From Heterodontus francisci (Eukaryota): a DNA stretch of 64,000 bases. The notes under the pieces are model-generated. The model made no database searches. It had not been told where the DNA came from and was given only the letters and a program-made list of their open reading frames with translations. Position numbers and translations under genes: made by a program. The stretch is from contig NC_090397.1 of NCBI RefSeq assembly GCF_036365525.1, positions 37,329,679-37,393,678 on the forward strand. The letters run 5' to 3'. Position 1 is the stretch's first letter. Each line of letters opens with the position of its first letter. Below are positions 7,201-51,784 of this stretch, piece after piece.

Positions 7201-8572
7201 TAGAAACAAGGGTGGCAAAACTGGTCCAGGAATGGATCTGGACTGTTTGACCCTGGAGAAACATCGCTGTCAGCTCAGTATATAATTAATGAGTTCAGAG
7301 CAGAGTAGCAGAAAAAAAGACAATGCTTTAGGTTTATCAGGAAAACTGACAAGCAAATGTGTTTATCATTTCTTCTATAAAAAGTACTCTGCTTAACACA
7401 TTCCTCCTTCAAGCATTAGCAATTTCTGCACTCTTTATTTAAATTATTTGTGCGTGGGTGGGGGAATCTCATTTTGTATTTAGCCTGTTATTTTTCTATC
7501 CAGTTTCAGACAAACATCCAAACACTCAATAAATAGTAGTCAACCTCCCATCACACTACACCAGTAATCGGGAGCATAGAGCTCTGTGTGGATTACGTTC
7601 ACTAAACCAATGTTGCCACTAAGTCATCAAAGTCTTGTAACGGTTCCTCACTGAGTGAAGGGAAAATAGGAGCTCTCAGAAATTAGCTTTAGACCTACAA
7701 GGTTCTGTTGGTGGAAAGCTCTGTGCTTTCTGGATGGGTGTCTGGGAAGCATGTCACTGCATTGTGTACAGTGGAAGCTCTCAGTATAACTAAGCTGACC
7801 AAAGTAGTTTGCAAGTTTTCTGGGAGAGCTACTTTGATCTCGAGTGTGTTAATTACCCCTTCCTCCCTCTCTCTGCTACTTTCCATTATACTTAACTTTT
7901 TCTGTTACTCTTCCCCCTTTCTCTCTGACAATCTATTCCTGTCACTCTCCCTCTTTGTGTTCTGTATTTGTCTATCTGCTGTGAGAGCTGCACGAGTGAA
8001 AGCGACGAGCAGCCTAACCAGCACAGTGGGAATGATATCAGTACAGTGCATGTGCCTTTGATCTACACATGCACTTTTCATATCAAGCTTTAGTTGGGCT
8101 GAGTTCTGCGTTCAGGGTTGTGAATGGGTGCGATGCTATATGCTCCAAGTGGAGTGTGTACACAGATTCAAGGCTACTGATTGTGTGGTGGGGGAAGGCA
8201 AGGTTGGAAGATATTACTGAATTGCCCTAAAAGTGTATATATTGCATGGGTGGCTGGAAACCACAGTTTCTTTTTGATGGAATGTGATTGGTACCATTTC
8301 TGAACCAGTGAGTTAGTTATAGGGTCTGATTGAACCATAGCTTCAATTGACTGAGCAAAAAAGGTTAAAAATGATTTCAGGTTTTCTACTTTGTTTGGCT
8401 TAAAAGACACCCTACAACACAAAACAGAAGAACATAGAAGCATATTTTTTTTTTAAAGACAAATTACATTTTCTTCTAACTTTTCCATTAGATTTATTTA
8501 ATAGTCTGTAGATTTCACCACAAAGCTTCCAAATGAAAGTCAGGTATTTAACAAGTTTGTGAAGACACTCAC

Positions 8573-9939
8573 CTATCAGGCTGAATGCATGGGACAGATA
8601 CTACAGGCACAGCAGTACATTTTTCAACTAAGAGTTTCCTAGCCTTCTTTGTCTTCTGCCTCGCCTTACATTTTATTTTAGTTGCCTTGTTAGGCGAATC
8701 TTTTCTACATATGCCATTTTTCACTTCAGCTGGCTCGTAAATGTTTAGTGGCCTTCTCACGCACCCTGGAGGAGTGTGCACAGCACAGAATGCAGTCTTT
8801 TTCACATTGAATGTTGTTGTTCCATTGGATGCTGTTTCTTTAATAGGCTCCATTTTCATGTACAGACCCGCTTGTTGAGCACAAGTTACATGGAATGCTG
8901 TATAACAATTTGCCTTATGGCACTGGATGCAAGCACCAAGCCCTTTCTGTTTGCAGAGGTAACACGTTAATTTCCACCTGGCTGCTGGAATGTTTTTGAC
9001 ACCATCAATAGGCTCAATGAATACAGTGTTAGCAAATCCAACTTCAGGAATCCACAGTGCGCACACAACATGTCCCCACTGACCATCATCTGTCTTCTTG
9101 AAAGCGCCACCCTTATTTGGACACAAAATACAATCAACAGATCGAGAAGGGGATTGCAAACAACGTCGGCACAACCACTGTCCTTCGGGTATATAAGGAA
9201 CCCCATAGCATTCCTGATGCACTGCTAAGTTACACATGTCGCAAAACAATATTACATTACTGTTTTGACATTCTCCATCCATGCAAATACAACAAACAGC
9301 ATCTTCATCAATTAGTGACTGAGGATCACCTTGATTAGAATTTTCAAAGTAAGATTCCTTCTCTAGTTTATCCATAAGGAACTCAAACACATTCTGTGAA
9401 ACTGCACTCAAACCATCACTTTTACGCCTTTCATTAATCATTTCCAACCATGCATAATCTTCCTCATCCATATCATACTCAACTTCATTATTGAGCTCCT
9501 CTGGGGATTTCTCAATGAGTCTGTAATAAGATGAAGGTCGACGAGGAGCAGAAGGTGGTTCGTAATCTACTATTCTAAATCTGGGTTCTGGCAATGCATT
9601 CACCTGTGTTGGAGCTCCATGTGTACTCTGAATAGTGGCATCCTTCTTTTTCACTTTATTAGATTTGTACCTTTTAGTCTTTATGAAAACAGGTGGACGT
9701 TCACTGTTTTCCTTGTTGCTGTTACATTCAACAATTTCTTGGGCAGTTAGGTCATCTTCCAAAATGATCTCCAAAGGATCATAAATACTGATCCTGTGCA
9801 GCCGGCCATCAATCTCCATTTCAACCATTCGCTGTGCTTGAGCATATGTCAGCATTTCACGGCTTGGCGAATGTTTCAGAGTGCAAGGTGAAGCTGGACG
9901 CCTTGCTGTCCCTCGGTGGCACCTTCCTTTCCTTCTCAT
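8573..9939 (-). CDS. BRD1: BRD1 (BRPF2) first coding exon: EPL1/EPC-like region plus PHD-Zn knuckle-PHD (PZP) module
   Basis: [13 protein letters not shown]...[17 protein letters not shown]...[14 protein letters not shown]...[42 protein letters not shown]. The N-terminus is BRD1-type and lacks the BRPF1 C2H2 finger. Acceptor (T)8CAG places the exon start at 9957; donor GTGAGT at 8572. Confidence 0.97.
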
Positions 9940-10429
9940 CGCTAATAAGGAAGTAGACTGAAAAAAAATTGATCAAAGTCAAGAAAAGCTATTGACATTT
10001 TATTAAAAGTTACAAAACATTACAAGAACTATCCCATAAGTTAGAATGGACTGAATCCAGCAACACCTCTGCATTTTTCCCACTTCAATTCTTTCTCAAA
10101 GTCCAATTTTCTGCACTTTTCCTCTTCTCCAAAAGGTAGAGAGACTCATGATGTGACACAGCTCCATGTGTGTTTCACACTTTCTAGCATCTTGATAGCA
10201 TGGCAATTCTTTATATGCAAGTCTAAATAGCAAGCGCTTACAGGCTTTTTACTGTGGAGAACATTGCAGCTCAGCTGTAATCTATCCACAACTGAAATTT
10301 ACAAATGCGCTCGTCAGCAAGGGTTATTAGATCAGGGTCAGGATTGGTGTTTGCCGTTCCTATCCCAGGGCACTGAAGCCAAACTGAAATCAGATTAATG
10401 CCCATTAAATCAGGAATCAAACATATGCC

Positions 10430-14000: not shown

Positions 14001-14859
14001 GAAACAAATTATCATGGCATCACAATACCCTGCTTAGGGTGCATGTTCCAGCATGGACAAGGACATGGCTTGTGATTAATCAAGAGTTCTGAGACAAACT
14101 GTAACATAGGAATGAACAATCTTATGATTGTGTAGTCTTAAATTCTAGAACATAAAGACAAAGGAATGTGACACCATTGTCATTAATGTTTCAGAAATCA
14201 ACATTTAACATAATTGATTTCTTCTATGCATCAGCACTGGGAATAAAACTTGCGTTAATTGGCAGTAACAGACAGAGTATATATATTTTTTTAAATGCAG
14301 TTTCTTTTCCAAACCAGGTGTACATGGATGAAATCATACTGTCTCCCTTCCATTTGCACTACGTTTAAGCACCAACTTGTTGATATAATCTGACATACTG
14401 ACCAAACAGAAAAAAACCATTAAAAAAAAGTTTGCAGCATAAATAAAACATGAATGATATGCCAATACTGTGAACGATTTCACAATAGGAAATCATCCAC
14501 AAGAGCGAATTACACATCAACAGCCCCCTCCCCAAACTGAACATTTTTTTTTTCTGAAGTTTAAGTCACAATGGCTGTTAACATAGGAAGAGTCTTGGAA
14601 AGCGGTTGGGGGGGGGGGGGGGAGGGGGGGTGGTGTTCTTACAGGATTATAATCAGAGGGGAAATGAGCATGTCATAGCACAACACCATTGCATAACTGC
14701 AAAAAAGGCTGTTGAGATTCACGGGCCAGTTGAAAAGACAAGATCCAGCGCACATTACAGGACAACAGAAATTGTGGCAGCAGCACGATAATAAGGGAGG
14801 AAATGGGTGGAGTAGAGTTGTAATTTGAACCTGGTGGGGGGTGAAGGGCTGGGGATTGC

Positions 14860-15830
14860 CACTCCGTGTCGGTTTAGAAACCCGGAAGTCTCTCCCCGTC
14901 GGGAGCAGAGGGACCATGACGTCACCGCAGCCAGTGCTTTCCCGGGCCTGTTTGAATGGAGCGGCGGCAGCGCCCGGCCCTCAGCAGCGACCGACAGGCC
15001 CAGCAATGCAGCGGCTCCTCCCCCCAAACTGCGCGCCATACATCCCGCCTTCCGTAGCCCGTGCTGAACTCCGACGATACCCGGAACCCACAGGGCTCCG
15101 GCAAATTAATAATCTTGGCCAAAAAAAATGGCGTCCAACAAAACAAGGAGCAGAAAGGTACTTGGCAGGGCTTCCCCACCCCCTCCCTCCCAGTCAGGCA
15201 GAGGGTGAACACCCCCCTTCCTCGCATTCGGGACACGATCGACTGTGTTTCAGGGCGGACTTACCGCCTACTGTGTCTGTGTCACCGAGTGCGGGACTGT
15301 ACTGACGCGCCCTCTCCGTGCAGGCCCCAGCTCCACTCGGCTTCTCGGGACGTTCATCAAACGGACCGCGCTCTCGAGACGCTTCTCTTTTCCAAATAAC
15401 AACACGGCAGCCTCGGCCCGCGCTCGAGGACCGCTCCGCCCGCGCGCCTCTTCCTCGCGTTCCGCAGCCAACTGTCACGGAACGCGCGAGCATTCGACAG
15501 CGCCAGCCCTTCTGCCGATTATTTTTCTCTCGCTCCTCTGGAAGCTCTTGCGCTTCTTCAACAACAATGCACCGTTTCGGTTACACAAGACGTCGAAGGC
15601 GGCGACGTCACGCGCCGGCTCACTGGCCGACAACTGCCGTTGGCTGACTGCCTGTCACCGCCAATCAGCGCGCGAGGAAGCGAGCGAGGCGGGGGAGGGG
15701 TAGCGAGAGGGATCGCGCGAGCCCACCCCCGGACTGGAGCGCGCGGTTAACCCTGGGTTGCAGGAGGGTGCGGGGGGAGGAAGGAAGGAAACCCAGTTGC
15801 CGGGTTTCAGGCCAGAAGAGGGAGAGTGTA
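14860..15830. promoter_or_regulatory. CpG island / BRD1 promoter, with probable non-coding exon 1 (~15600 to 15265, minus strand)
   Basis: CpG-dense GC-rich block in an AT-rich background. Minus-strand donor GCG|GTAAGT at 15264. Motifs: CCAAT 15661, full CRE TGACGTCA 14917-14924, ETS CCGGAAGT 14882-14889, YY1-like AAAATGGCG 15125-15133. The TSS is not determinable from sequence. Confidence 0.8.
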
Positions 15831-16050
15831 TTTTCCAGTTGCAGACACTTCGCGTTTATATTTTAAAAAATGGTGCGATGCTTTGTCTTGATAAGTGTGT
15901 ACTGTTTGCGGTGCCCATGACTGGGAGGTCGGGTCGAAAAGGGCCGGAGGGAAAAGCCCAGTTGTTGCGTAAGGGGTCCAATATGCGTAACTACATTTGG
16001 GGCCTTTAACCACCTTGGCGGCGTCATTTTACACAAACACCAACATTTAC

Positions 16051-16072
16051 ATATATATATATATATATATAT
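16051..16072. repeat. (AT)n microsatellite
   Basis: About 11 AT units. Confidence 0.9.
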
Positions 16073-16499
16073 GACTGCTTTGTTTGCAACCATGAAGCGC
16101 TGACTCTCCAGTTTCCAATTCCAGGGGCGCTGCAAACCACTGCCAGCACGGTAAGGCGAAACGAGCATGCCCTTTGCTGGGAGAATAAAAGCAAAATACT
16201 GTGGATGCTGGAAATGTGAAATAAAAACAAAGTGTTGGGAAAAGCTCAGCAGGTCTGGCAGCATCTGTGAAGAGAGAAGCAGAGTTAACGTTTCAGGTCA
16301 GTGACCTTCCATCCGAACCTGGGAGAAGCCTGATAGAGGTGAATGGGGTGGCTCAGTATCTTGATCAGGAATCTGGGAGAGGCTGAACCTGCTGTTATTG
16401 TGGCTGACTTGGATATGCAAAAGCTGCTGACTGAAGGAAGAAAAAAAAAACTTAAGAAAATCGTCCCAAGAAAAAGCGACATGAAAAACTTTTTCACAT

Positions 16500-17575
16500 A
16501 GGATGTAAATGCGTTGGAGACAGTACAGAGAAGGTTTACGAGACGAATACCTGGAATGGGCGGCTGTCTTACAAAGAAAGATTGAACAGGCTAGACTTGT
16601 ATCTGCTGGAATTTAGAAGAGTAAGAGGTGACTTGATTGAAACATAAGATCCTGAGGGGTCTTGACAGTGTGGATGTGGAAAGGGTGTTTCCACCTTGTG
16701 GGATAATCTAGAACTTGGGGTCACTGTTTAAAAATAAGGGGTTGACCATTTAAGACAGAGATGAGAAGAATTTTTTTTCTCTCAAAGGGTTGTGAGTCTT
16801 TGGAATTTTCTTCCTCAAAAGGCGAGAAGCAGAGTCTTTGAATATTTTTAAGGCAGAGATAGATAGATTCTTGATAAGCAAGGGGGAGTGAAGGTTATTG
16901 GGGGTAGGCGGAAATGTGGAGTAATCTGTCCAGTCATGAACTTTTTTTTTTAGAGATATAGCACTGAAACAGGCCCTTCGGCCCACCGAGTCTGTGCCGA
17001 CCATCAACCACCCATTTATACTAATCCTACATTAATTCCATATTCCTACCACATCCCCACCTGTCCCCTATATTTCCCTACCACCTACCTATACTAGGGG
17101 CAATTTATAATGGCCAATTAACTATCAACCAGCAAGTTTTTGGCATGTGGGAGGAAACCGGAGCACCCGGAGGAAACCCACGCAAACACAGGGAGAACTT
17201 GCAAACTCCACACAGGCAGTACCCAGAATTGAACCCGGGTCGCTGGAGCTGTGAGGCTGCGCTGCTAACCACTGCGCCACTGTGCCGCCCTATTGAATGG
17301 CAGAGTAGGCTCGAAGGCTGAGTGGCCTACTCCTGCTCCTAATTCGTATGTTTGTAGCGAATAGTTAAGGTGTGGAATGCACTGCCTGAGAACGTGGGGG
17401 AGGCAAGCTCAATTGAAACATTCAAAAGGGAATTGGACTGTTGTATGAAAAGGAAGACTGTGAAGGGTTACGGGGAGAAGGCAGTGAGTGGAACTAGGTG
17501 AAATGCTCATTAGGAGAGCCAATGCAGACATGATGGGCTGAATGCCCTCCTTTTGCACTAACAATTCTGTGACTG
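16500..17575 (+). mobile_element. CR1 LINE 3' fragments, the first interrupted by a V-SINE
   Basis: Encodes ALETVQRRFTR..RLNRLDL..RRVRGDLIET (CR1 ORF2 end) and the tail ggcctactcctgctcctaattcgtatg. Confidence 0.85.
16942..17290 (-). mobile_element. HE1-like V-SINE with an A-tail, nested in a CR1 3' end
   Basis: Same sequence as 2673-3024. It splits the CR1 tail motif cagtcatgaac | tattgaatggcagag. Confidence 0.9.
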
Positions 17576-18219
17576 GTAGTTTCCATCTTTATTTGATGCC
17601 TGACATTTTGACAATTGTTCACAAAGTTCCAATGGAAAATTACCAGTTTAAATCATTGTAAAAATTTTTAAAGTTTCTGTTCCCTACATTACGCAGAGAA
17701 TGTTTTTAATCTCTGTTGGTAAGCAGTATTTGTTTTAAAAATGTCCTGTGTTTAGCAAATCAAGCTACAGCAGCAAATACTGGTCAGAAACAATCGATTA
17801 GTTTCTTTGTTCTGATGAGAGTTTGTGAATTTATAAATACTTTCTTGGGGAAGCTTACTGAAATTGTATCATAATGCAACTTGTAAAGGATTGTTCTTAA
17901 AAACGTACCTTGGGAAGAAAAATCACATTAATGCTTTTCTCAAGTTTAACACTTAAGAGCGTTTCACATTTCCTATTTGTAAAGCAAGCAATTTTAGCAC
18001 ATTTATTACAAATGTAAGAATAAGTTTGCATAGGGAGAATTTGATGGAGTTATGTGTTGAAACATTTCATAAAATTTGAGTTTGTGTATTTCAGTGGAAG
18101 AGGCATAAAGGAAGGTATCAAAATACATATGTTATAATAAATACATTTTAAATCACTTTGAAAATTGTGTTATCCTAACTATCTGTTTTACAAAAGATTC
18201 TACAGTTTTTTAAACTGTT

Positions 18220-18930
18220 TTGGGGATTGGCTATATTGGCTCCCAGCACCCCCAACAGCACAGATTTAAAAGTATTTTCCTTGTATTTAAATCCCTTCAT
18301 GACTTTACCCCTTTCTATCTTTGTACGCTTTAAAGACGTCTGCAAACGCGACATGAAGTCCTGTGACGTTGATCACAAGTCTTGGGAGTCAGTTGCCAGC
18401 GTTCGCCAGAGCTGGCGGGCAGCCATAAAGGCAGGGCTAAAGTGTGGCAAGTCGAAGAGCCTTAGCAGTTGGCAGGAAAAAAGACAAAAGCGCAAGGGGA
18501 GAGCCAACTGTGTAACCGCCCCCGACAAACAAATTTTTCTGCAGCATCTGTGGAAGAGCCTGTCACTCTAGAATTGGCCTTTATAGCCACTCCAGGCGCT
18601 GCTCCACACACCACTGACCACCTCCAGGGGCTTACCCATTGTCTCTCGAGATAAGGAGGCCAAAGAAGGATCCTACAACTGTGCCCCAAACTCTTCGATC
18701 CTCAACTCTGGCCTCTTTTGTACTCACCCCACCATTAATGGCCATGCTTTCAGCTCCTTAGATCTCACTCTATTACTCCCTCAACTGTCTCTACTCTCAA
18801 ACCTTTTTTACCAAGCTTTTGGTCACCCATCCTAATATTTCTTAGATTAGCATCCATTTTTGATCATGCATCTGAAGCACTTTGGGATATTTTTCTATGT
18901 TAAAGGTATAATGTAAAGTTGTTATTGTTT
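18220..18930 (+). mobile_element. RTE-clade LINE 3' end (~18320-18670) nested in an L2 3' fragment
   Basis: ORF relic RFKDVCKRDMKSCDVDHKSWES...SWRAAIKAG is typical of the RTE C-terminus; tail gaggccaaagaag. The flanks resemble L2. Confidence 0.75.
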
Positions 18931-20066
18931 GTAGTTTAATAGCAATGAAAAATTGAAGTCTGAAGACATTACTGTATGGTCTGGAGATACAGATAGGACA
19001 GAGCATGTAAGGGTAGTGGATTTCCTTCCCTAAAGGACATTAGCGTACCAGATTGGCTTTTGTGACAATTGATGATAGATTCACAGCACCATTACTGAGA
19101 CGAGCTTTCAATTCCAGATTTTTCTTTTATTAATTAATCTTAAACTTCACCAGCTGCTGTGGTGGGACTTAAATCCATGTCCCTATGGCTTTAGCCTGAG
19201 CCTCTGTCTTACAAGTTCAATGACATTATCACTACACCACTGTCTTCCCCCAAGACTCTTGAGTGGAAATTGAACCTGCAACTTTTGACTCAGAGGCAAG
19301 AGAGCTACGAGTGAGCAACAGCCAATACATTAGATGTTGCTTTTTTCCACATACCCAGTAATGGATCATAAATATGTTTAATCAAAACATCCTGCTTTTT
19401 GCCTTGCATCAGGGAAACACACAAATTGCATACTGCTTACATTTTACATCATGGTGCAGAAAGGTAGTGGTATCACATAACTATTAAACTAAACATCTGT
19501 TAAGGAAATGAGAAGGTTGTAATACTTCATTAAGTTTTAGAAAGTTGCTTTATCTAGATTTTAATGCAATAACCTGCAACTTTTGAAGCTCTTGCAGTTT
19601 ATATCTGTTTGAATATTGTTACAGAACAAAAGATTCTGAATTTAATAGAATATACATTTACAGTGTGTAGCCACAATTATTGCAGGAATGATTTTAAATT
19701 GCTGTTGTATTGATGGAACTGGGATGGGGAGGCTTAATACATGGTTGATGAAGTACTGAGGATTGTGCTTTACTTCCATTTCAAGAAACTTATAGTTTTG
19801 TTTATAAAAGTAGACAAATGAAATTACTTTATCTTGTTTTTGGTACCATATTAAACTATTTTGATTTGTAATACTGCAAAAGTCATGATTAGCCAAAGTA
19901 ATTAGGAAACTTTCATTAATAGTAGAGGCAGTGATGAGAGAGATCAGAAGGAAGAGAACCATAGAACTGTTGGTGACAAACAAAATAACTCATCATTTAC
20001 AACCCTAATAAGCCCTTTTCATGGTAATATTGATATCAATACAGGTGTTTATCTATTCCATCTATT

Positions 20067-22450
20067 AGCGGTGGAGGTTCTAGGAAATAAAAATCAGCTG
20101 TCTGGAATCATTTTATTTGTCCACTGCAGATATTACCAAAGTAATTTGTGTGCATTACAACTGAGCATTTATTCGAGATAAGAAATAGTCAGACCTTGGT
20201 ATAAGTTGTCTAATGAAGCATCTACATTGATCTCATCCATCTGCACTTATATATGATTGTGACAATGCTGCAAATTCATCATCTCTATCAGCTTCTCCAA
20301 CATTTTTGTGTTCCTTGCAATCTCTACTACTTCAGCAGACAATTAAACCTACTACTCAAAAAAAAAAACAGGACAAACCTCAAGCATGGAATCATTTTAC
20401 TATGTCCCCATAGACTACACAAAGGCATTGTGAATTTTGGAGCACAATTCTGGAGAACTAATCCACCACAGTTGATGGAAGTCTGTTTGCCACACATAGA
20501 AATCTTTTGAAGTTGGCAGGAAGGAAATGAGCAGCTGGATTGCATCATTTAGTCAGGTAATCCCACTTGTTCAATTTCTGATGCATAAGATAGGTAACCT
20601 AATTGAAGAAACCATAGGAATTGACGATATGTTGAAGACGGAGGAAAGCAGTGGTTATCACTTTCTATCTGCACTTCACAATCTAAAGTAGATCTTCTCT
20701 GCTTTAGTGGATTTTCATTACAAGACATCCACCTTAGAGAATAAAGATGAGCAATATAAGCGGGAAATGATTAATGAACATCAATTTATATTTATATATT
20801 GCCTTTAACCCAATAAACCGTCCCAAGTTGCTTCATAGGAGCATTATAAAACAAAATATGACACTGAGCCACGAGATATTAGGTAAGATGATCAAAAGTT
20901 TGGTCAAAAAGGGAAGTTTTAAGGAATGTCTTAAAGGAGAAAGCAACGTAGAAAGGTAGAGAGGTGTAGGATAGGTATGCCAGAGTTTAGGGGCTAGGCA
21001 ACTGAAGCTGTGGCCACCAGTGGTGGAGTGATTAAATCGGGGACGATCAAGAGGCAAGAATTAGGTGAGCGCAGACATCTTGGAGGGTTGTGGGGCTGGA
21101 GGAGATTGCAGAGATAGGGAGGGTCGAGGCCATGGAGGGATTTGTAAACGAGGATGAGAATTTTAAAATCAAGCCATTGCTTGACTGGGAGCCATTGCAG
21201 GTCAGCAAGCACAGGCGTGATAGGTGATTGGAGACTTACTGCGAGTTAAGACATAGGCATTAAAGTTTTGGATTATCTCACGTTTACAGAGGGTAGAACA
21301 TGGGAGACCAGTCAGGAGTATGTTGGAAAAGTCAAATATAGAGGTAACATAAGCACGAATGAGAGTGTAGCAGCAGATGAGCTGACGGGTGAATTAGGCC
21401 AACGTTAGAGGTGGAAATAGGCGGTCGTGGTGATGGCACAAATATGTGGTCGGAAGTTTATCTTGGTGTCAAATATGACACCAAGGTTGCGAACAGACTG
21501 ACTTAATCTCAGACTGTTGCCAGGGAGAAGGTATCTATGGAATGGAGTTTGGAGCAGGGACTGAAAATGATAGTTTCAGTTTTCCCATTATTTAATGGGT
21601 GGAAATTTTTGCTCATCCAGTATTGGATGTCAGAAAAACAGTCTGATAATTTATCAACAGCAGAGGAGTCAAGAGAGGTAGTGGTGAGGTAGAGTGGGTG
21701 TTGTCAGCATACATGTGGAAACTAATGCTGTGCTTTGAGATGATGTTGCCAAGGAGCAACATGTAGTTGAGAAATAGGAGGGGAGCAAGGATAAATCCTT
21801 GGGGACGCCATAGGTAATGGTACGGGAGCAGGAAAAGAAGCCATTGCAAGTGATAGTCTGAATACAATTAGATGAATGAAGCCAGGTGAGAGCAGTATCA
21901 CCCAACTGAATGACAGTGGAGAGGTGTTTGAGGAAGATGGTGTGGTCACTTGTGTTAAAGGCTGCGGACAGGTCGAGAAGGATGAGGGAAAGTTTACCAT
22001 TGTCACAGTCACGTGTTACATTGATAAAAAGCTGTTTCGGTACTGTGATAGGAGGTTGAAACCTTTTTAATTATACTTCCAAAGGGATGATAACTTATAT
22101 GCTACTGGCTACATCTTGGAGTCCTCTTCAAATGAATCATTTGATGGTCATGAGGATCAATTGTCACTCCTGTCCAGTATAAACTGGCAGCAGTGTAACA
22201 GTTTATTATGCATAAGTTGCCAGAAAGAATGGTATTAGAGTATTTTGAGGAAGTTATATTTGATCAAAGCTGTGGCCCTCTATTGGAAGCTAAAAAAAAG
22301 ATTTTCTGGCCAATGCTTGCAGTTAAGTTTCTTGAGTGTCCTCCCTCTGCTGTTAGTCTCACAAAAATGGGATCTTGCTGTCAATCTGATCATTTTCAAG
22401 AGATTGCTAGATTTGTGCATCAACATAGTTCCAATATTGCATTTAAGATG
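20067..22450 (+). pseudogene. ZBED4: Decayed ZBED4 (domesticated hAT transposase) pseudogene, split by an L2 insertion
   Basis: Stitched translation (/ = frameshift): SGGGSRK*KSAVWNHF/YLSTADITKVICVHYN*AFIRDKK*SDLGISCLMKHLH*SHP (BED finger, 20067-20239); QAWNHFTMS/IDYTKAL (second BED relic, ~20380); SVCHT*KSFEVGRKEMSSWIASFSQVIPLVQFLMHKIGNLIEETIGIDDMLKT/ALHNLK*IFSALVDFHYKTSTLENKDEQYKREMINE (~20482-20778); after the L2, KLPERMVLEYFEEVIFDQSCGPL/YWKLKK/FWPMLAVKFLECPPSAVS (hATC dimerisation domain). These are collinear with recalled human ZBED4 and lie at its syntenic position and strand. Confidence 0.88.
20779..22060 (-). mobile_element. L2-clade LINE, 5'-truncated, inserted in the ZBED4 pseudogene
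   Basis: ORF relics GVPKD..., HSISFHMYADNT (RT YADD-like motif) and LADLQWLPVKQWLDFKILILVYKSLHGL. Confidence 0.88.
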
Positions 22451-24662
22451 CAAAGATCAAGTGGCTCATGATATTAATGTCCTTTGCAGCTTTAAACACT
22501 AATATGCACCTCTAATTAAGACAATGGTGGGGTTGGGGGAAATGGGTTTAGCCCATTTTTGGGTTCTAAAACCAGTCGAGTGCCAAGTGCCTAACCAGGA
22601 AGCCCAAAGCTGTGGGAATTTGCTTATTTTTGCTTGAGCTGCCAATGATTGACTAACCACATAGACAGCTTGTGCTTTTCACTAGAAGTACCTGCTCCTC
22701 CTGACTCCAATATTTATTTTGGTGGCATAGCAACCACTTAATGCCGCGCACAGCAAACGTGGGTTCTGCTATTCTCAATCAAAATGAAAGTGGCTAAAAC
22801 GGGTTGAGTCCCTCCTTTACAAATATAAAGGTGACTGATGCCTGTATTTGGCAGCTGCTCGAGATACCCGCAAACTCACCTTTACCAGTATGGACATGGG
22901 ACACTGTGCCATGAAATTGATCTTTTATACCTGCTTACCATTGAGAAAATGGGCACAATGAGGACCAATTTCTATCCCTACTGTCAGAATATTAGAAGCT
23001 TGAAGTTCCTCGGACCCGACATTTAGTTGCTTTCAAGCATATTTAAAATTGGAGAGGATAGCTTTGCATGAAGTTTTATAAGTAATGAATTGTGCAATTC
23101 ATTGGTTAGGATTGAAGAGACAACTGCTACAACCTTAAAAACGTCAACTTTAATACCCTGGTTGCACCAGAAAAGATCCACATGTAAATACTGGTATTCT
23201 GTTACAAAGAAAGTTCAATTAAAAGTCTGTTTAAAATAAATACTTGCACTGTAATCAATTTGCACGTTACTATTAATTTGTCATTGCTAAAATATTTATT
23301 TATACAGATGCCATATTAGACGAACAGTAGATAACCTGCTCTCTCCAGGAGATTTCGCTTTCTTGAAAATGGACCAAGTCTGCTTCACAACAGTAAAAAT
23401 TATAATCAAATAGAAAAACCTTTTAAAACTTGGACCCTCATAGCTTTTTTCCAGTTATTTTCTGAGATTGTGTATAGTGGTTATAGCAGTGATTAATTTT
23501 CATTCAAGTGGCTCCAAGAAAAAAACTTCACAGATGCAGATTGTCAAAATGACTTGCTTTTTGTTCCTGTGACAGAAGCCTACTGTTTCAAATCTAGGCA
23601 AACGTACAGTACCGAATTTCCCTAGTTGTACTGAGAATAATGTAAAATTACAGCACAGCGGACAGGAATAGAGCCATAAATTTTCAACCATAGAGTTCAG
23701 AAGAATGAACTGGGCATTCTAATATACCAAGTTATCTTTTTATAGCATATAAAGTAATTTTACATTTATTGGTGCATGTCTGAGGTGTATGCGATTGTGT
23801 CTCAAGGGTTACATTAGGAGTTTAAATCCATGTTCCCATGGGATAACATTATTTTGATTTATAATTCATCCGCCACTAAAGTAACAAGCCCTTTCCAAAC
23901 TCCAGACTTTCAAAATTCAAAGAGGACAATGCAATAAGAAATATATGCACTCAAATAGGAATGAGTTGAGAGGTCGACACCTGATTTTGCAAACCAGGTC
24001 TATGCTACATTAGCTCCTAGTTTGAGTGCAAGACATGACCACTTTTAACAGTAAATCAGAGGATCAAAATAATATTTAGTCCTATGACTCAAAAACAACT
24101 TTAAAAGTTCCTGGTACTACAGACAGCTACACTGAAAGTTGTTTTTCTTGTTTCAATGTCAATTTCATTTTCAGAAGTGTAATTGTTACTTTTCAGCAGA
24201 CGAAGGTGAAAAATAGATGAGACAGGTAAACAAATTTAATTTGTACCACAGCAATGCATAATTATCATGAGGTTCAGTAAATGCATTCATCAGTGTGTAA
24301 TTTTCTGCCCATTCACTTCAATGGATGGAAATTTATGGGCTGGCAAGCGCAGAAGCAGATTTCTTATTGCAATAAAACTGAGGAAGGCATGATGCAGTTT
24401 TTAAAATCAAGGAGGAAACTGGGTAGGTGTAGAAATGCTCTGAGTAAAACTAGAAGTAAATAAGCAAATTCGACGACTTCATGTTTTCTAGCTTGACACA
24501 AGTTAAGTTACAACATCTTCACACATGTAGTTATCATATTTCATAGGCACCCACTTAGCACAGTGAATTACAATTTTGTTCAAGCACTAATAAAGCAAAT
24601 AGATTCTTGAATAAGCAGGAACTGTAATATTGAACAGAATGGTGGAATGGCCTGGATAATTT

Positions 24663-24912
24663 TTATCCTTTTCTCATATTTTCATGATGTGTGTATATTT
24701 TTTCTAATACCACTAATTTTGTCTCAATTGTAATATAAAATGGAGGTAGCTGAGATAAGTTAAATCCAATTCCACTAAAACCAGAAATATTAAACATTAT
24801 CTTATGGGTTTTTCTATACCGCGATATATAAATTGGGTTCATTTCCATCAGGTAGTGCGTATGTGCAATACTTTCAACATCTTCTGGTTTAAGATCTTCT
24901 CTCTTGTCATAC
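24663..24912 (-). CDS. ALG12: ALG12 last coding exon (9 of 9)
   Basis: Acceptor ATATAG| at 24913. Translates (K)YDKREDLKPEDVESIAHTHYLME...NLSQLPPFYITIETKLVVLEKIYTHHENMRKG*, matching the ALG12 C-terminus; stop TAA ends at 24663. Confidence 0.93.
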
Positions 24913-25849
24913 CTATATATCAAAAAAAAAAATCAAAATGACAATTTTTCATACTGCAACACCAGTAAACACACTTAAGCCACACTCTTGAATTTCCTTA
25001 TAACAGTTTCAAATTTAGAGATTTTAAGGACTTCCTGTCATGAACCATTTTCTTCTTCCCAGCAAAGGCTGTTATGTCCTATTTATAGGTGGTAGTCTTG
25101 GAATTCTTGAATACTCATGAAAATAACAGATTCTGTTCTGTTATTTAATCGGAGATCGCACTACCTGTAGGAAATGACTACTATACCATTTACCATTCAG
25201 AATCCAGCACAGGCAGTGAAGTGCGGTTACGGATCGGGCAGACATTATTCGCACCATCCAATTTTCCATTTCTATTAACTTCAAAACTGGGCGGGGTGAA
25301 CAACAGGCAGCTGATCCACAACCATCAGTTTACTGCCCGCAGCAAAAATGATAATTGACCCATAGAATCTTGAAGCAAAGGAGGAGCCTACTTGGCCCTT
25401 TGCTGGCTCAGTCCCATTATCCGTATCTTTTTAAAAATATATAGGACATCCTACCAACCCATAAGCAAAATCATTTCACTTCTCCCTTTGTTCTTTTGAT
25501 CAAACATTTTGCCCTCGAGTTACAGACTTGTCAACTTGTGGATTTATTTTTTTTTACTGTTTACCTTACCAAAACCCCTCATTTTTTAAACAGCTCTATC
25601 AAATCTGTTATTGACTTTTTCTATTCTAATAAAAAAAGTCCAAGTTTCTCTTGTCTCTCCTGGTCACTAATGCCTTTAAATCATTTTAATGAATCACTTC
25701 TGCACCCACTCCTTAACATTCTTTGTGAAATAAATGTTCAAAAATGGACACAATATTCTAACTGCAATGTAATTAATTATTTGTACCAATTTTGCCATTT
25801 GCTCTTGTACCTATGCCCCATATCCCTTGATACTCTTACTTAACAAAAA

Positions 25850-51010: not shown

Positions 51011-51141
51011 CTGCAAAAACAAAAAGAGGCCCAGAAAGCGCTTGACATCATTCTCCGAAAATGAAACAGGCAGAAATGGACACCGATTCAATGTAGCGGG
51101 AGGAGCTGGAGTACAAGTTGCAGGCTCTCTGGAGCTACTAC

Positions 51142-51306
51142 CTTGTCCAGATGCAGGCGGTGGTACAGCAGGTCGTGCGCCGCTTGCAGGTTGAAACTTT
51201 CCTCTACTTTAGTGAAGGGACAGGCCAGCAGATGGAGGGAGGCGAGCAGAACCAGAAGCACCAAGAGCAACGCTTCCCTTCGCCCAGCCCGGCTCCTCTC
51301 AGCCAT
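51142..51306 (-). CDS. ALG12: ALG12 (Dol-P-Man:Man7GlcNAc2-PP-Dol alpha-1,6-mannosyltransferase) coding exon 1
   Basis: ATG in AACATGG context at 51306. Translates [15 protein letters not shown]...[21 protein letters not shown]; donor AAG|GTAGTA. A probable upstream acceptor TTTTCTGCAG| puts the exon start at 51359. The nine exons sum to 1491 nt with consistent phases. Confidence 0.96.
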
Positions 51307-51784
51307 GTTGCATTCACGTAGAGAGCCAAGGGTCAAAGGCGAGGAAGCACACTCACTGTCTGCAGAAAACAGTCAAAGTGCTGGCACAGCAATGCAAAAC
51401 AAAGTTAGCACCAGCTCCGTGTACACACGACAATTGAAATGTTGTCTGGACTGGCTGCCAAAAACCGTCTGCGTTCAGCAGATATTTTGGAAGCAATACT
51501 GTCATCACATTTGGTCTGTGTGTATTGCAGAGTCACTTAGCGTCCTCATGGTGGAGATGAGGCTCCAGCAGAGTGCTACACAAAGCTTTAAATAGAGGAA
51601 ATATCCAGCAACCGAACGCCCTCCCCGATGACGGCTAACAACATCCAGTTCAAAGGAGACCTACACAGGATGTCACTGCCCACAATGTGCATTCGCTGCG
51701 ATTGAGTCTGAGATTTCATTATTTACAATAAGTTAGGGCTCTTTTCATGTTGTCATTTGTGTGCATTAACAGTAATAACGCAAT

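Follow-up and report, generated by a model that had tools for sequence, protein, structure and literature searches.

A single-copy ZBED4 relic in a shark genome that may descend from an early form of the gene

PMC7786948 describes zbed4 as present in bony vertebrates, and PMC3154125 proposes a role for ZBED4 in retinal Muller cells. In Table 1 of the founding ZBED survey (PMC3606216) each ZBED4 orthologue adjoins ALG12 and all are from bony vertebrates, and that survey reports that active transposons carry one BED finger and that the fingers of ZBED4 were duplicated after domestication. The survey appears to be without shark sampling, judging from four of its supplementary files, in which the words "shark", "skate" and "Callorhinchus" are absent. 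A literature search on ZBED4 in sharks, chondrichthyans, elephant shark and cartilaginous fish found no paper. A gene lost from a lineage can persist as a unitary pseudogene, that is, a disabled orthologue at the syntenic locus of a genome with no working copy.

Here we analyse a stretch of 64,000 nucleotides of the Heterodontus francisci genome (NC_090397.1, positions 37,329,679 to 37,393,678; hereafter the window), which holds on its + strand, between a BRD1-like and an ALG12-like gene, a single-copy, dead and shortened ZBED4 relic (Table 1). The relic lies head to head with the BRD1-like gene, whose first exon sits in an island with a GC content of 0.53 to 0.61 across 14500-16000 and is followed by a GT donor beyond 15265 on the minus strand. 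On its other side the ALG12-like gene extends to ~51400, with mannosyltransferase exons on the minus strand over ~24.7-51.4 kb (Pfam Glyco_transf_22 in the upstream exons; PDB match to the mannosyltransferase 9s6t, E=1.7e-33), and beyond it, near 57-63 kb, come plus-strand exons of EGF type (CRELD2-like). These matches agree with the presumptive names BRD1, ALG12 and CRELD2, the flanking gene being probably BRD1 rather than BRPF1. The ALG12-like (51091-51372, minus strand) and CRELD2-like (55.8-57.9 kb, plus strand) genes begin head to head, the order that a first, sequence-only reading of this DNA had given for human. That reading had also placed ZBED4 at this position, and the relic indeed adjoins the ALG12-like gene, as does every orthologue in Table 1 of PMC3606216.

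Table 1. Features of the relic and its flanks (window coordinates).
Feature	Position	Strand	Basis or remark
BRD1/BRPF-type gene, large coding exon	8572..9972	-	Pfam EPL1, PHD, zf-HC5HC2H; PDB matches to BRPF1 and BRD1 pieces
BRD1-like first exon, GC-rich island	15265..15639	-	contigs of 4 runs end at 15265
Possible remains of N-terminal leader (weak)	19906..20020	+	shuffles
BED finger A, complete	20079..20240	+	tblastn, frameshift-aware profile alignment
Inter-finger linker, ~45-50 codons	20241..20374	+	weak likeness to linkers after BED1, BED2 and BED3
Start of BED finger B, ~19 residues, frameshift 20411	20375..20430	+	cut by large deletion
Large deletion junction	20430..20431	+	contigs of both organisms A and B span it
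ZBED4 residues 922-1041 (Latimeria numbering): end of helical insertion and distal RNase H-like part	20431..20780	+	
LINE, 5'-truncated	~20777..22050	-	right edge approximate
Probable decayed linker ahead of hATC	22051..22207	+	21 of 200 shuffles reach score; alone not significant
hATC region, ZBED4 1096-1145	22208..22354	+	similarity to ZBED4; compensating frameshifts 22280/22293
Unrelated dispersed repeat fragment	22342..22423	.	9 other loci, 76-84%
ALG12-like 3' end and last coding exon	23172..24932	-	deep 1987-base contig starts at 23172

Three-frame translation reveals the pieces of the relic, and the frameshift-aware alignment to ZBED4 that the sequence-only reading had proposed scores 379, against 31 to 47 in 14 controls (12 shuffles, the reversed sequence and the reverse complement). 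The pieces lie on the + strand in the order first described, finger A, finger B, residues 922-1041 and hATC region, with the minus-strand LINE between the last two. Eight stops interrupt 332 aligned codons, four in finger A (20088, 20162, 20186 and 20228) and four in the 922-1041 piece (20431, 20473, 20497 and 20689); the five stops named at the outset are all present, and 20228, 20431 and 20473 come in addition. The well-aligned parts contain six frameshifts, namely 20115 in finger A, the compensating pair 20641/20657 in the 922-1041 piece and the three sites listed in Table 1, and the weak linker ahead of the hATC region has three more and a stop at 22196. An intact single-exon ZBED4 frame of ~1150-1300 aa is absent from the locus, which carries stops, frameshifts, a deletion and a LINE in its place, and the locus makes no ZBED4 protein today.

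Some of the domains first proposed are less complete than was thought. The first of the two BED relics is a complete finger (with its second Cys lost), but the second is a stub rather than a whole finger. The distal hAT catalytic region does match Latimeria ZBED4, yet it retains zero of the three DDE positions; by alignment to Hermes these fall near Latimeria 744, 819 and 1148, none within the relic, and the first (Asp) belongs to the deleted part. The hATC domain is recognisable by its similarity to ZBED4 but truncated, stopping three residues short of the catalytic Glu position, and Pfam alone gives no match to it or to any of the five relic fragments (0/5). The relic had been drawn to 22450; it ends near 22354, because 22342-22423 belongs to a dispersed repeat, a piece of which sits where the last ~40 ZBED4 codons would be. 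Those ~40 residues were not found (score 25.5, against 23 to 30 in 10 shuffles). The nine other loci of the repeat have 60-600 bases in common among themselves, and the repeat as a whole (L002-L010) is an unnamed, old sequence of 300-600 bases with copies 65-88% alike. A 90-codon open frame at 22199-22468 was rejected as one homologous frame, as it contains both the frameshift pair 22280/22293 and the repeat; with this frame a word-based homologue search retained 0 of 13 candidates and a PDB search gave 0 matches, since one part of it is out of register and another is repeat.

Lost with the large deletion are the first two catalytic positions, the remainder of finger B and whatever fingers may have followed it. 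If finger B is BED3, 431-438 reference residues (~435 codons) are missing at the junction. The deleted part was not found elsewhere in the window, nor was any further ZBED4 relic in 15650-20050 (37, against 31 to 35 in 5 shuffles). The score of the leader is reached by 1-3 of 100 shuffles with four single references and by 84 of 200 with the profile, which is not significant, and the inter-finger linker scores against linkers after BED1-4 are reached by 4, 9, 11 and 66 of 200 shuffles. The LINE, presumably of L2 type by its motifs, matches Pfam RVT_1 below the cut-off (E=0.0019), and contig depth is very high over 20740-22079; a scan found no target-site duplication. It is 60-78% alike to other copies, which would allow insertion after the death of the gene. 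A SINE of this genome is presumably of HE1 type.

The descent of the relic from the ZBED4 lineage is supported by database matches, in-genome comparison and phylogeny, in agreement with the orthology first claimed. Among 1.84 billion representatives, the 96-residue frame 20500-20787 has seven matches at E<=0.001 (best 4.3e-11), five of them named ZBED4 and two unnamed but alike by sequence, and neither ZBED6, ZBEDX nor the near free elements appear among them. Against 24/24 ZBED4s the C-terminal reading scores 117-145 bits, whereas with 29 hAT/BED loci of the same genome, comprising 25 of 150 scored hATC matches and 4 BED genes, it does not exceed 21 bits (E>=2.5). In the C-terminal tree, which used 13 of the 24 ZBED4s and left out ZBED6, ZBEDX and the nearest free hAT elements, the relic groups with ZBED4 (support 100/99); its branch is long and has no settled place inside the clade. 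Identity over 159 columns is 48-50% to lobe-fins and 46-48% to ray-fins, and 26 diagnostic columns show 11 lobe-fin states, 6 ray-fin states and 9 of neither, as for an outgroup.

In the 6.0-Gb assembly, 19880-20790 has one match, itself, in a search that gives a lower bound, and nine extra genome matches cover the repeat fragment 22342-22423 only. A stricter first look for an intact ZBED4 elsewhere in the genome scored 20 candidates and returned five matches, none of them such a copy, the other four being 22-28% identical; no multi-finger ZBED4-like frame was found either, with 5 BED fingers among 150 scored of 254 candidates. The relocated intact copy for which the sequence-only reading had left room was thus not found in the genome, and the three outcomes it had set against itself, placement among free hAT elements, many dispersed copies and assembly errors, did not occur. 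No terminal inverted repeats or 8-base target duplication bracketing the relic were seen within 19300-23400, where decay of ~0.2 per site could have erased them. We have little doubt that the locus is a single-copy, anciently dead ZBED4 orthologue, a judgement that covers jointly three of the readings weighed below, which share the orthology.

Contigs of run X1 (organism A, perhaps the source sample) match the window without a difference across 19400-20849 and 21843-22973. Organism B, represented by runs X5 and X6 (one sample) and X8 (another study), differs at 25 of 1295 bases (~2%) and keeps 8/8 stop codons, and its contigs bridge the deletion junction and both LINE edges. The lesions, for which a check against raw reads had been suggested, are reproduced by the X1 contigs, and organism B shares the stops, the deletion and the LINE, so they are not assembly errors. 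Relative to A, organism B carries an extra base after 20117 and lacks one at 22292, where A has two of its frameshifts, and it has a private 40-base deletion (20525-20564); decay has continued independently in the A and B lines. Of 74 columns invariant across 24 bony ZBED4s the relic keeps 45, and in simulations this figure and the eight stops in 332 codons each correspond to d of ~0.2-0.25 substitutions per site, with wide ranges. The agreement of the two measures suggests a protein near the bony consensus at death. This decay is ~20x organism A's share of the A-B distance. The gene was lost, as the sequence-only reading had it, but "in this lineage" understates the age, since the lesions are about twentyfold older than the divergence of organism B. 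A selection comparison between A and B has 12 scored sites in the ZBED4 frame, 5 of them silent taken singly, which are too few. Absolute dating by the per-generation rate of the epaulette shark is inapplicable, as it would need ~3e8 generations, and the available part of 10.1101/2022.10.17.512540 holds no usable figure for a time calibration.

In runs X5, X6, X8 and X10 long contigs end at the BRD1 splice donor, so these runs, none of which is recorded as RNA, are probably RNA. X5 covers 19367-23170 nearly continuously at a depth of ~5-34 (most pieces 7-17), against 84 for BRD1, and the runs of organism A are patchy over the relic. Minus-strand poly(A)-type hexamers at 19126 and 19377 lie near contig ends at 19114 and 19367, which makes ALG12 read-through the likelier source of the relic contigs. 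The probable-RNA contigs of organism B span both relic and LINE (19114-23170), likely by such read-through. On the far side of the BRD1 island, X10 contigs at 15788-16213 (depth 22) and 17428-18115 (depth 35), absent from three other compared runs, may be divergent transcripts arising on the side of the old ZBED4 promoter.

Finger A stands about equally far from the four fingers of bony ZBED4. Its profile scores against BED1-4 are 115, 118, 100 and 116, and its identity to each class is 21-26/46 (23 species); the four consensus fingers share 24-31/50, and BED1 and BED2 are each conserved at >=46/50 across the 23 species. It keeps 4/46 private residues (1/8, 1/11, 0/11 and 2/16 for BED1-4), on a consensus in which 1 of 24 rows is a turtle with its BED4 labelled BED3; the turtle was dropped from the tree. 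At 27 scorable variable columns, finger A matches at least two fingers at 15 (one of these hinging on the placement of a frameshift), one finger at 4 and none at 8. Simulated decay of one finger to the observed identity, using the fingers of Latimeria, gar, Polypterus and Ascaphus, left 10-17 identities with the other fingers, and the observed sum was reached in 0 of 1500 runs x 16 settings (24,000 simulated decays), under a purely neutral model without conversion between fingers or selected change before death. The best identity among 890 fingers in 248 fetched proteins is 27/46. The finger tree puts finger A among the ZBED4 fingers (clade support 98/97) and close to the middle of that clade, and AU tests over 50 columns reject none of its pairings with BED1-4 (p 0.26, 0.10, 0.17 and 0.26). 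The finger B stub, at 60, 41, 51 and 39 against BED1-4, leans to BED1, as does slightly the 3' linker of finger A, and with the extra base of organism B the starts of fingers A and B share 20/21 bases. An assignment of finger A to BED2 by the motif after WNHF was rejected, as the extra base of organism B at 20117 gives different residues. On a simple reading, finger A would descend from a finger near the common ancestor of BED1-4; conversion between fingers may be the main alternative for its central place. The initial view stands for orthology, place and single copy. An already domesticated, four-finger state would go beyond this, finger A being unassignable to any of BED1-4 and the residue that would reveal catalytic death falling in the deleted part.

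The best reading of the locus, to which we give a probability of roughly 0.55, is that the relic comes from an early ZBED4 whose tandem BED fingers had yet to diverge into the four of bony vertebrates. From the sequence comparisons we infer the following history. An Ac-family hAT element would have inserted here before the split of cartilaginous and bony fishes; one or more duplications of its BED finger would have followed, and the host likely kept the copy, lying head to head with BRD1, as an immobile gene for a DNA-binding protein. Bony vertebrates would have differentiated and frozen four fingers while the shark-side copy remained near the ancestral state, and with loss of function neutral decay would have brought the large deletion, at least eight stops, the frameshifts, the LINE and the small repeat, the order of these lesions being part of the same conditional account. 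A host function before death would be in keeping with the two tandem fingers and the single copy. Corrected for decay (50% observed over 0.61 kept), the C-terminus may have been ~80% like Latimeria ZBED4. Whether this is a cartilaginous-fish ZBED4 fossilised in mid-domestication, with the insertion and first BED duplication preceding the jawed-vertebrate split and the four fingers confined to the bony stem, we regard as an even bet. No named chondrichthyan occurs among the best 120 of 377 matches, nor among the best 120 of 325 obtained with a relic-weighted profile, and among the fetched proteins with long alignments (243/248) none exceeds 42% identity to the relic.

A modern four-finger ZBED4 might instead have died here, with two deletions removing most fingers and conversion or selected drift centring finger A. 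The best global alignments equate A with BED1 and B with BED3, with ~250 residues deleted between them, and both the estimated pre-decay likeness to Latimeria and the bases shared by the two finger starts, which would fit homogenisation, speak for it as well; but the handful of private residues kept by finger A, the near-constancy of BED1 and BED2 among bony vertebrates and the failure of every simulated decay to match make this account unlikely. We consider it similarly doubtful that the same ancestral insertion was never a host gene on the shark side and that a proto-ZBED4 transposon, dead around the split, has stayed readable through slow mutation. Little selected change would then be required, since finger A and the C-terminal part both lie near the inferred ancestor. 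Slow mutation in sharks (7e-10 per base and generation for the epaulette shark; PMC10587355) makes an age near the jawed-vertebrate split possible for the relic, and the description of zbed4 from bony vertebrates in PMC7786948, like the dearth of named chondrichthyans among the best matches just given, fits as well. Against this account stand two tandem fingers where active elements have one (PMC3606216), the lack of sister copies of the family in 6.0 Gb (by searches that give lower bounds) and the lack of bracketing inverted repeats, though age could have erased these.

Chance arrival at this site of a transferred ZBED4 or a ZBED4 retrocopy, or of a related hAT element that inserted independently, is far less probable. 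This genome is rich in hAT relics (150 of 1151 candidates were scored), but 0/29 sampled loci resemble the relic, its neighbour is that of all the orthologues listed in PMC3606216, and its residues mix lobe-fin and ray-fin states rather than copying either. Assembly errors in an intact gene are refuted by the contigs of X1 and organism B.

Other BED and hAT sequences of this genome are of a different kind. Intact single-BED hAT-derived frames of 667-694 aa occur at four loci, L011 (C6:16530558-16534637), L013 (C41), L014 (C40) and L015 (C19); we take the first to be ZBED1 from its look, and the other three are candidate domesticated genes. Another BED finger (L018) lies ~3 kb upstream of L014. 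At C45:17.14-19.21 Mb, 18 hATC matches, found in both orientations, cluster within 2 Mb; 15 of them have open frames of 623-635 aa, and they form a local array of intact-looking hAT-type frames. Among bony ZBED4s, the proteins of sturgeon, gar and bichir (P0164, P0168 and P0175) have an N-terminal extension that by eye is like the linker before BED3, a hint of further internal duplication. The bony ZBED4s examined have Gly or Ser at P0120 residue 744 and its equivalents, where Hermes has the first catalytic Asp, although PMC3606216 describes the DDE triad as conserved among ZBED genes.

The presence of a relic at the orthologous site would date the insertion back to the jawed-vertebrate ancestor, and "absent in sharks" would become "lost, or never finished". 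Should finger A be ancestral, domestication splits into datable steps (insertion, finger duplication and specialisation) that are rarely observable, and if the mid-domestication reading is true, pooled relics from sharks, rays and chimaeras would show the state of the gene before taming. The relic offers no new mechanism and no working product; it shows that a gene history of 400 million years can remain legible in shark DNA and yet be invisible to gene finders.

Like the bony ZBED4s (Latimeria P0120, Ascaphus P0002, Paramormyrops P0003, gar P0168 and Polypterus P0175), the relic is a single-copy neighbour of ALG12 with BED fingers in tandem ahead of a C-terminus derived from a hAT transposase, and it is 46-50% identical to them over the 159 columns. 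Unlike them, it is dead, its core is deleted, it has one whole finger and a stub, with finger A none of BED1-4, it has taken up a LINE and a repeat, and its last ~40 residues are gone. With Ac-family hAT transposases such as Hermes it shares a BED finger and hATC region (the ZBED4-Hermes alignment has E=1.8e-9), but unlike an autonomous hAT element it has two fingers, no surviving DDE position, no sister copies and no inverted repeats that could be seen. The ZBED1-like and other single-BED genes of the same genome (L011, L013, L014 and L015) are also hAT-derived frames with a BED finger, whereas they are open, have one finger each, are 22-28% identical to ZBED4 and form a separate clade. The relic resembles unitary pseudogenes in being disabled and syntenic, with no working copy found, yet here, unlike in the usual case, the comparison reaches across the deepest divergence of jawed vertebrates, and the modern form of the gene may be younger than the relic.
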